Shown here: positions 4,268-4,705 of the stretch, piece after piece | How the letters are laid out: each line of letters begins with the position of its first letter | How positions within the stretch are numbered: position 1 is the first letter of the stretch | NCBI GenBank assembly: GCA_044892525.1 | Contig: CM097885.1 | Location: forward strand, 35,590,001-35,654,000 | Direction: 5' to 3' | DNA length: 64,000 nt | From: Schmidtea polychroa | Lineage: Eukaryota | Translations under genes and position numbers: made by a program | Notes under the pieces: model-generated | The model's input: only the letters and a program-made list of their open reading frames with translations | Database searches by the model: none | Told to the model about the DNA's origin: nothing

Positions 4268-4705
4268 ATGTTAGCAAATATAAATTATCGAGGAAATTTT
4301 GATGTATCGAATATGAGGTTCCCACCAGGGAAACCCCAGCAAATTATCGATAGAAGTGGGAAATATCCGATAATATTTTTCAAGACTGGTAAATGCCGAA
4401 TCATGGGATGTAAGAAACCTTTGGATATTAATAAATTACAATATCGAATAAATAATATTACAATCCAATCAATTACCGTTACTATGGATATGGGACATAG
4501 TATCAATCTATATAACATGTCGAAAAAATGTGATTGTATGTTTGAACCGCAATTGTTTCCGGCACTAAGACTATTAAAATATAACCCTATATGTGTCAAC
4601 GTGTTTGCTAGTGGAAAGGTTGTCATGCTGGGGTTGAGAAATTTGGAGTATAGAGAATTTGTTGACAATGTTCGAAATGAGATAATTTCATTGGTCGATT
4701 TCTAA
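4268..4705 (+). CDS. TATA-binding protein (TBP)-like protein, Polinton-encoded
   Basis: Two TBP-repeat signatures: IFFKTGKCRIMG and FEPQLFPALRL...VNVFASGKVVMLG (compare YEPELFPGLIY...LIFVSGKVVLTG). Intact 145 aa. Confidence 0.85.
   Translation: MLANINYRGNFDVSNMRFPPGKPQQIIDRSGKYPIIFFKTGKCRIMGCKKPLDINKLQYRINNITIQSITVTMDMGHSINLYNMSKKCDCMFEPQLFPALRLLKYNPICVNVFASGKVVMLGLRNLEYREFVDNVRNEIISLVDF

Follow-up and report, generated by a model that had tools for sequence, protein, structure and literature searches.

A reduced TATA-binding protein family of animal Polintons and a conserved upstream box as candidate parts of a late-gene switch

Whether animal Polintons are regulated viruses or mere transposons is a long-standing question, and in the literature searched we came across no account of the timing of their capsid expression. 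The locus studied here lies in a 64,000-nucleotide stretch of the Schmidtea polychroa genome (GCA_044892525.1, contig CM097885.1, positions 35,590,001 to 35,654,000; hereafter the window), in which a first-pass annotation proposed a Polinton-encoded TATA-binding protein (TBP) homolog, captured and minimal, that redirects or competes for host Pol II initiation. Adintoviruses, or MELD viruses, have a gene set like that of the window's Polintons, with pPolB, rve integrase, ATPase, hexon, penton, protease and a Bcl-2 homolog (Starrett et al. 2021, PMC8502044). TBP is labelled on a related element in one figure legend of that paper, the only precedent found in print; the main text holds no further mention of TBP and does not contain the word promoter, and one supplement searched gave no match. 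A word search likewise found no mention of TBP in the main text of PMC11131425, PMC12220804 or bioRxiv 2026.06.19.733378. No published study that analyses a TBP of Polintons, or the box described below, turned up in the literature searched, whose scope excluded figures, bioRxiv supplements, Repbase entries and subscription papers, all of which may name the gene.

The 145-aa reading frame is intact, and at the level of profile comparison and a predicted model its product is confirmed as a TBP fold spanning both lobes. Pfam PF00352 matches residues 64–125 with 54.6 bits against a curated cut-off of 22.9. A plain sequence search picks up the second (C-) lobe only, and the first lobe was recovered when its profile was compared with profiles of cellular TBPs, which aligned residues 16–142 (probability 99.4, E 3.7e-21). 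All 35 matches in a PDB sequence search were TBPs or TBP fusions. The structure predicted with 78 relatives in the alignment is confident throughout (pLDDT 96.3, pTM 0.84) and presents two pseudo-symmetric lobes forming a saddle; model residues 1–145 superpose on yeast TBP 66–240 (Z 13.2, rmsd 2.5, 144 residues), the next unrelated (non-TBP) fold scores Z 6.5, and Foldseek concurs with the TBP assignment. Structural matches in BFVD include giant-virus TBP-like proteins, and herpesvirus entries show weak fold similarity. The TBP core alone covers all 145 aa, which leaves no N-terminal Pol II-binding or C-terminal DNA-binding domain of the ORF24 type; the minimal size proposed for the protein is supported by the model. 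The gene stands head-to-head with the ATPase gene across 99 nt, in the divergent orientation that had been noted (Table 1).

Table 1. Positions of Polinton genes, elements and YATAAACR boxes in the window
Feature	Position	Strand	Remarks
Rve integrase with chromodomain	1823..2935	-	Weak Pfam matches; microsatellite insert
YATAAACR box	2994..3001	-	66 nt upstream of integrase ATG
ORF177, basic conserved Polinton ORF	2997..3530	-	177 aa; no Pfam match
A32-like packaging ATPase	3549..4168	-	ATG at 4168; frame broken near 4025 in the window copy
YATAAACR box	3556..3563	-	Within ATPase 3' end, 33 nt upstream of ORF177
Divergent intergenic region, ATPase/TBP-like gene	4169..4267		99 nt; candidate bidirectional promoter
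YATAAACR box	4194..4201	-	33 nt upstream of ATPase ATG
Reduced two-lobe TBP-like gene, Polinton family A	4268..4705	+	145 aa; Pfam, profile comparison, predicted structure
YATAAACR box	4736..4743	+	44 nt upstream of likely first exon (ATG 4780) of downstream neighbour
Downstream neighbour of TBP-like gene	4780..5134	+	Probably two exons with GT-AG intron, Cys-rich end; exons judged from sequence alone
ORF136	5468..5878	+	136 aa; accompanies TBP-like gene in 21/80 metagenome loci
Element C	23118..33877		Terminal inverted repeats about 23118-24111 and 33103-33877; without ATPase, ORF177, integrase
Downstream neighbour, element C	24190..24495	-	Distant homolog of 4880-5131
TBP-like homolog, element C	24596..24970	-	5'-truncated; 62% identical over 124 aa
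YATAAACR box	25806..25813	+	Within core-protein gene, 42 nt upstream of major capsid ATG (25848)
Major capsid protein, double jelly-roll, element C	25848..27074	+	Weak DJR match

The window copy of element A is truncated near 1807, and its context was read from nine family-A sister copies. On both flanks taken together, these carry the block PolB–MCP–core–penton–integrase–ORF177–ATPase, followed after the ATPase by the TBP-like gene, its neighbour, ORF136 and a Bcl-2-like gene; PolB lies within 10 kb in seven of the nine. The sister copies thereby display the gene block of Polintons/Mavericks (pPolB, rve integrase, ATPase, MCP, penton, protease). Weak Pfam matches (E 0.01) mark a Bcl-2-like ORF in several Polinton copies, at 6685–6996 (-), 34602–34946 (+) and 51487–51897 (-), and mutually related, minisatellite-like repeats flank the truncated element A at 1–1800 and 10377–13390. 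A third, degraded Polinton copy at 41500–52700 retains PolB, MCP, penton, integrase and ATPase remnants and has no TBP-like gene, which was probably deleted.

The claim of a second, divergent element with a homologous gene and the same downstream neighbour stands in part. Element C, which has terminal inverted repeats, does encode a homolog at 62% identity, and the neighbour is shared, although distantly (26% identity over 85 aa between elements A and C, pairwise E 2e-6). The homolog itself is not intact: it lacks a start codon and ~20 N-terminal residues and runs straight into a penton remnant, and the internal deletion that took the TBP start also removed ATPase, ORF177 and integrase. When the element-C family was searched, the best 150 rows comprised 100 of its own family, mostly 155-codon open frames, and 50 relatives at 65–68%. 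The neighbour region 24190–24550 in this element has, to judge by its letters, a two-exon look with a GT-AG intron.

The gene is not confined to these elements. The AT-rich, 781-Mb host genome holds at least 150 near-identical copies (the best 150 of 4163 candidates, all 98–100% identical and stop-free), a word-indexed search gave 92 relatives at 37–97% identity, and a profile search gave 60 representatives at E < 1e-30. No relatives were detected in the viral contigs searched, nor by a TBP-alignment search of genome contigs. A Polinton core gene is also present in 33 of 80 metagenome loci, a set that includes four weak matches, probably cellular TBPs, and in 13 of the 15 loci of at least 5 kb. 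In a quick tree of 93 rows, which include no identified TRF2 or giant-virus TBP, a long branch (SH-aLRT 100) separates the 62 family rows from 21 TBPs of eukaryotes, 6 that are archaeal or unassigned and the four of the host; on this tree the Polinton TBP family is monophyletic and distant from all cellular TBPs sampled. Median dN/dS was 0.17 in 43 pairs with pS 0.1–0.6 drawn from 62 intact ORFs, pairs that overlap and hence are not independent and that leave out the family-A genomic copies; family A versus element C, with saturated dS (pS 0.745), was not used.

These results bear on how the gene arose. One conceivable source is a recent, neutrally evolving retrocopy of a host TBP, carried passively, and the host genome does contain three intronless divergent TBP paralogs. 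However, the 62 family rows are separated from all four host TBPs by the long branch, the low dN/dS speaks for purifying selection and against neutral evolution, and the relatives lie within Polintons in nearly all of the longer metagenome loci. The tree and selection results refute the retrocopy reading, to which we assign practically no remaining probability. Of the two outcomes that the first-pass annotation had named as refuting, a missing TBP fold and a neutrally evolving, recent host retrocopy, neither was obtained. The description of the TBP as captured accordingly holds for an ancient event, in a gene that now stands throughout a whole Polinton lineage, and fails for a recent capture.

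Compared with cellular TBP (PF00352), with which it shares the two-lobe saddle, three of four intercalating Phe, N69 and the C-lobe acidic stirrup, the Polinton protein is ~30 residues shorter, about 23% identical and placed on a separate long branch, and it differs in missing or short N-lobe helices H1/H2, loss of F99 and conserved polar substitutions on the DNA face. We examined these residues in yeast TBP numbering across 183 of 225 family proteins, those of 135–230 aa. The spacing between N69 and F116 is 35 residues in the window protein versus 48 in yeast TBP, and that between G125 and Q158 is 21 versus 34. In the N-lobe of the predicted model H1 is absent and there is no long H2, so that the basic regulator patch of H2, a feature of canonical TBPs, is not seen. 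This patch is common to the docking of TFIIA, TAF1, Mot1 and Brf1/2, as described in PMC7221094. When the relatives P0163, P0164, P0172 and P0173 are set against the window protein, a gradient appears from both N-lobe helices to neither in the window's clade, which may reflect stepwise erosion of one lobe.

On the DNA-binding surface, the canonical set of four intercalating Phe is incomplete. F116 (96%), F190 (99%) and F207 (99%) are kept across the relatives, whereas F99 is lost: its column holds Pro, or Lys/Arg with a one-residue shift, no Phe stands next to it, and the register there may be off by one residue. The first-pass annotation was right that the C-lobe retains its two Phe positions and that another sequence takes the place of the first stirrup. 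The C-lobe glutamates E186 (92%) and E188 (98%), which presumably correspond to the TFIIB-contact glutamates of the giant-virus TBP study, are kept at the family level, as in canonical TBPs. The window copy alone has Gln (Gln95) at the second, a position that is Glu in 29 of the 29 further copies fetched. Other positions of the DNA face have changed as well: V71N in 75% of the relatives, V122R in 96%, T124M in 98%, N159S/T in 97% and V161T/S in 97%, all at positions that presumably face DNA, together with I194R in 79% and L205N in 99%. Thus, the DNA-facing residues are altered yet conserved within the Polinton TBP family. Of the three positions at which specificity is switched in yeast TBPm3, I194 and L205 make up two, according to PMC1636458, which also describes contact of the TBP N-lobe with the box in its 3' half and a bias against C there.

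A candidate target, noticed at first as ATAAAC before the ATPase, was found upstream of start codons. We counted YATAAACR within 80 nt upstream of one start per ORF, with redundancy removed at 70% and with 300 shuffles, in loci L031–L106, L138 and L123, leaving out L107–L110 and other own-genome copies. The box precedes the ATPase in 18 of 20 cases (shuffles: mean 0.32, maximum 2), ORF177 in 14 of 14 and MCP in 9 of 10; it is less regular at integrase (6/10), penton (3/10), core (1/5), protease (0/1) and ORF136 (2/15), and none was found at 46 TBP-like or 4 PolB starts. Across the gene classes, shuffle means stayed below 0.8 and maxima did not exceed 4; since the loci were found via the TBP gene and are kin by descent, these counts are not independent. 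In antisense, no gene class had the box except TBP, with two cases, and the usual place of ATPase-associated boxes is -32 to -42. Of the 62 sites in seven mapped stretches, 33 fall 15–80 nt before an ORF start, against 5–7% expected, and the other 29 are not so placed before an ORF of at least 60 aa. Where the motif lies inside an upstream gene, the codons that spell it are invariant in the core genes (6 of 6) and the ATPases (12 of 12) having the peptide (which 3 further core and 2 further ATPase ORFs lack), in two different reading frames; the joint chance by codon usage is 1e-6.7 (core) and 1e-4.5 (ATPase), if the codons are independent.

The TBP-like gene itself has a different kind of upstream region. 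TATAWAR occurs at 14 of 46 TBP-like starts, a number that 2 of 300 shuffles reach, and an Inr-like word at 34 of 46 (shuffle maximum 21), with a spacing between the two of 30–33 nt in 11 of 16 pairs. CCAAT-like words stand beside this TATA/Inr-like promoter in L031–L033, L055, L062 and L072. As for the box counted at integrase, a small ORF with a Met-Gly start lies directly behind YATAAACR between ORF177 and integrase (L123:8336–8563 (-); also L045 near 4536), and the box may serve this ORF instead. A 128-nt near-perfect palindrome at 51344–51470, directly upstream of an ATPase remnant, carries YATAAACR on both arms.

These findings can be assembled into a putative switch from early to late genes. 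The TBP-like gene would be an early gene, read by host machinery from its ordinary TATA/Inr-type promoter. Its product, by predicted fold a TBP saddle with a re-tuned DNA face, would then bind YATAAACR before the packaging and capsid genes, its conserved C-lobe acidic stirrup would recruit host TFIIB and Pol II, and the loss of H2 from the N-lobe could allow escape from the host regulators that dock there, namely TFIIA, TAF1, Mot1 and Brf1. For the redirection of host Pol II initiation that had been proposed, the YATAAACR box may be a concrete candidate target, and the switch would belong to a large Polinton/adintovirus lineage; the competition proposed along with it stands as a rival reading. 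In favor of such a switch are the fold over both lobes, the purifying selection, the placement of the motif before late genes, the changes at I194 and L205, the TBPm3 positions, and the presence of C at position 7 of the motif. Against it, penton, core and protease starts mostly lack the box while 2 of 15 ORF136 starts have it, and if the box acts like a TATA box, its distance of about 35 nt to the ATG makes for a very short leader. Weighing both sides, we regard it as rather probable that the reduced TBP has altered specificity and initiates late-gene transcription by way of host TFIIB and Pol II. We are more tentative, with somewhat less than even credence, about the stronger proposal of a self-sufficient orthogonal promoter switch, in which a 145-residue TBP reads YATAAACR with host TFIIB and Pol II, ignores host TBP regulators and needs no viral TFIIB or polymerase.

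The box might instead be read by a host factor. YATAAACR is close to a weak TATA box that host TBP/TFIID could use, and it fits the Forkhead consensus RYAAAYA; the TBP-like protein would then act as a decoy or repressor, damping host or early transcription by sequestering TFIIB or by obstructing promoters. The motif is common in host-like DNA: the window holds 28 sites against 24.5 expected, and 29 of 100 shuffles reach 28, so there is no window-wide enrichment and the 8-mer alone cannot give selectivity in the host genome. The TFIIB stirrup, moreover, is the best-kept surface of the protein, while its DNA face is polar and without F99. Yet near-invariant new residues on the DNA face would be needless in a pure decoy, and the box keeps to one strand and a fixed position, as enhancer sites typically do not. 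It is also all but missing from the Polintons with a full-size TBP, described next. On balance, we consider a host-read box with a decoy protein unlikely, though worth keeping in view.

Polintons on contigs of bin G001 combine a pfam03175-type PolB with a full-size TBP, and ATAAAC occurs in 2 of 23 of their late-gene upstream regions. Their TBPs keep the equivalents of F99, T124 and T215 (by eye) and group apart from the reduced family in a second quick tree, among whose rows no TRF2 is identified; Polintons therefore hold two TBP types, perhaps from two captures. Gene type and box vary together in this one contrast, which covers one lineage in one genome bin. Beta-type adintoviruses are marked by a divergent PolB with less than 30% identity to the pfam03175 type. 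PF03175 gave no match for L038 and 77 bits for L092, versus 188 bits for L139, a comparison that includes no reference Beta PolB; the PF03175 matches in the host genome, checked at one locus, are of the same PolB type as the window's. The full-size gene encodes a two-lobe TBP of 183–188 aa in L144 (2229–2780), L145 and L148, adjoins a protease gene in L144, and sits on contigs that are filed in a bacterial bin. L139 and L141 were considered as TBP-less Polintons and rejected, the same bin holding three contigs with MCP and full-size TBP, and no true TBP-less Polinton was found among the contigs examined.

If the reduced TBP does initiate at the box, it may do so with a partner other than host TFIIB alone: an element-encoded protein (ORF136, the Cys-rich neighbour or ORF177) or the Pol III factor Brf1. 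In giant viruses a TBP nearly always comes together with a viral TFIIB, and Brf1/2 is a further contact of E186 (PMC7221094). ORF136 accompanies the TBP-like gene in about a quarter of the metagenome loci, and several element neighbours are without matches. Against these points, no TFIIB family match occurs among the 22 + 16 element ORFs scanned, ORF136 was not detected in distant lineages of the family among the metagenome loci, and the two glutamates persist, in contrast to viruses that encode a TFIIB, where conservation at the first is about 40%. As for Brf1, the helix bearing its N-lobe contact (PMC7221094) is missing or short in the Polinton protein. We therefore hold a dependence on such a partner to be improbable. 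A predicted complex of the TBP-like protein with a flatworm-like TFIIB core (98–300), modelled without DNA and with alignments unused, scored 0.28 against a mark of 0.34, which speaks neither for nor against contact. ORF136 itself has no match in Atlas, Pfam, PDB or PHROGs and gave a single-sequence fold prediction with pLDDT 41; that it is an OB-fold ssDNA-binding protein is a guess.

In the remaining alternative the protein would bend DNA in an architectural role, during replication, integration or packaging, and the box would be an RNA-level or unrelated signal. The gene adjoins the ATPase/integrase block in many loci, and rolling-circle initiators too contain TBP-like folds (Z about 6). 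The TFIIB-contact residues, however, are conserved, and in family A the box stands before the divergent ATPase with no co-oriented gene upstream; its occurrence before starts of this kind argues against a polyadenylation signal. An architectural role accordingly seems to us quite improbable, even more so than a different partner.

Two viral systems resemble the late-gene factor that we favor. The KSHV ORF24-type TBP mimics of beta- and gammaherpesviruses combine a polar DNA interface with minimal late promoters containing TATTWAA and with host Pol II (PMC12529657). In both cases a virus-encoded TBP-like protein with a polar DNA interface goes with a variant TATA box before late genes. ORF24 is a large protein that makes direct contact with Pol II and depends on five further viral activators, and it has been modelled as incompatible with direct TFIIB binding (PMC12529657), whereas the Polinton protein consists of the saddle alone and retains the TFIIB stirrup. 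By analogy, it would work like the herpesvirus TBP mimics, as far as its predicted function goes, yet it is no member of them. The giant viruses (Nucleocytoviricota) likewise encode two-lobe TBPs in which the N-lobe regulator surface is not conserved, mostly together with a co-evolving TFIIB of their own, and these have mostly lost the stirrup glutamates (PMC7221094, in whose main text the word Polinton is absent). The Polinton family, in contrast, keeps both glutamates, and none of the 38 ORFs scanned matches TFIIB.

A conserved TBP-like factor and a conserved late-gene box make the mechanism testable with one small protein and an 8-base motif. It would be a third design of viral TBP use, beside the TBP/TFIIB pairs of giant viruses and the multi-protein complexes of herpesviruses. 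If the stronger proposal of a self-sufficient switch is true, animal Polintons would have a genuine cascade from early to late genes, its promoter code shared by very divergent lineages, and the hundreds of intact genomic copies could act on matching host sites too. The Polinton TBP is also a natural test of which TBP surfaces initiation needs, and the box may aid late-gene annotation in Polintons.

Several other genes were observed alongside. The intronless host TBP paralogs (L132, L133 and L134) are 29–38% identical to the canonical query, and an intron-containing TBP lies in L131. Thirteen matches with 301–310-codon open frames suggest clustered intronless TFIIB-like genes (G000; C3, 38.2–39.1 Mb, and C1, 23.8–24.2 Mb), one of which, when fetched (L137), has a zinc ribbon and core; such genes could be partners of the host TBP paralogs. 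Within the window, an intronless rhodopsin-family GPCR gene of the host lies between Polinton copies at 39570–40622 (-), and a Spin-doc/BED zinc-finger ORF at 54040–54387 (+) is probably a DNA-transposon fragment.
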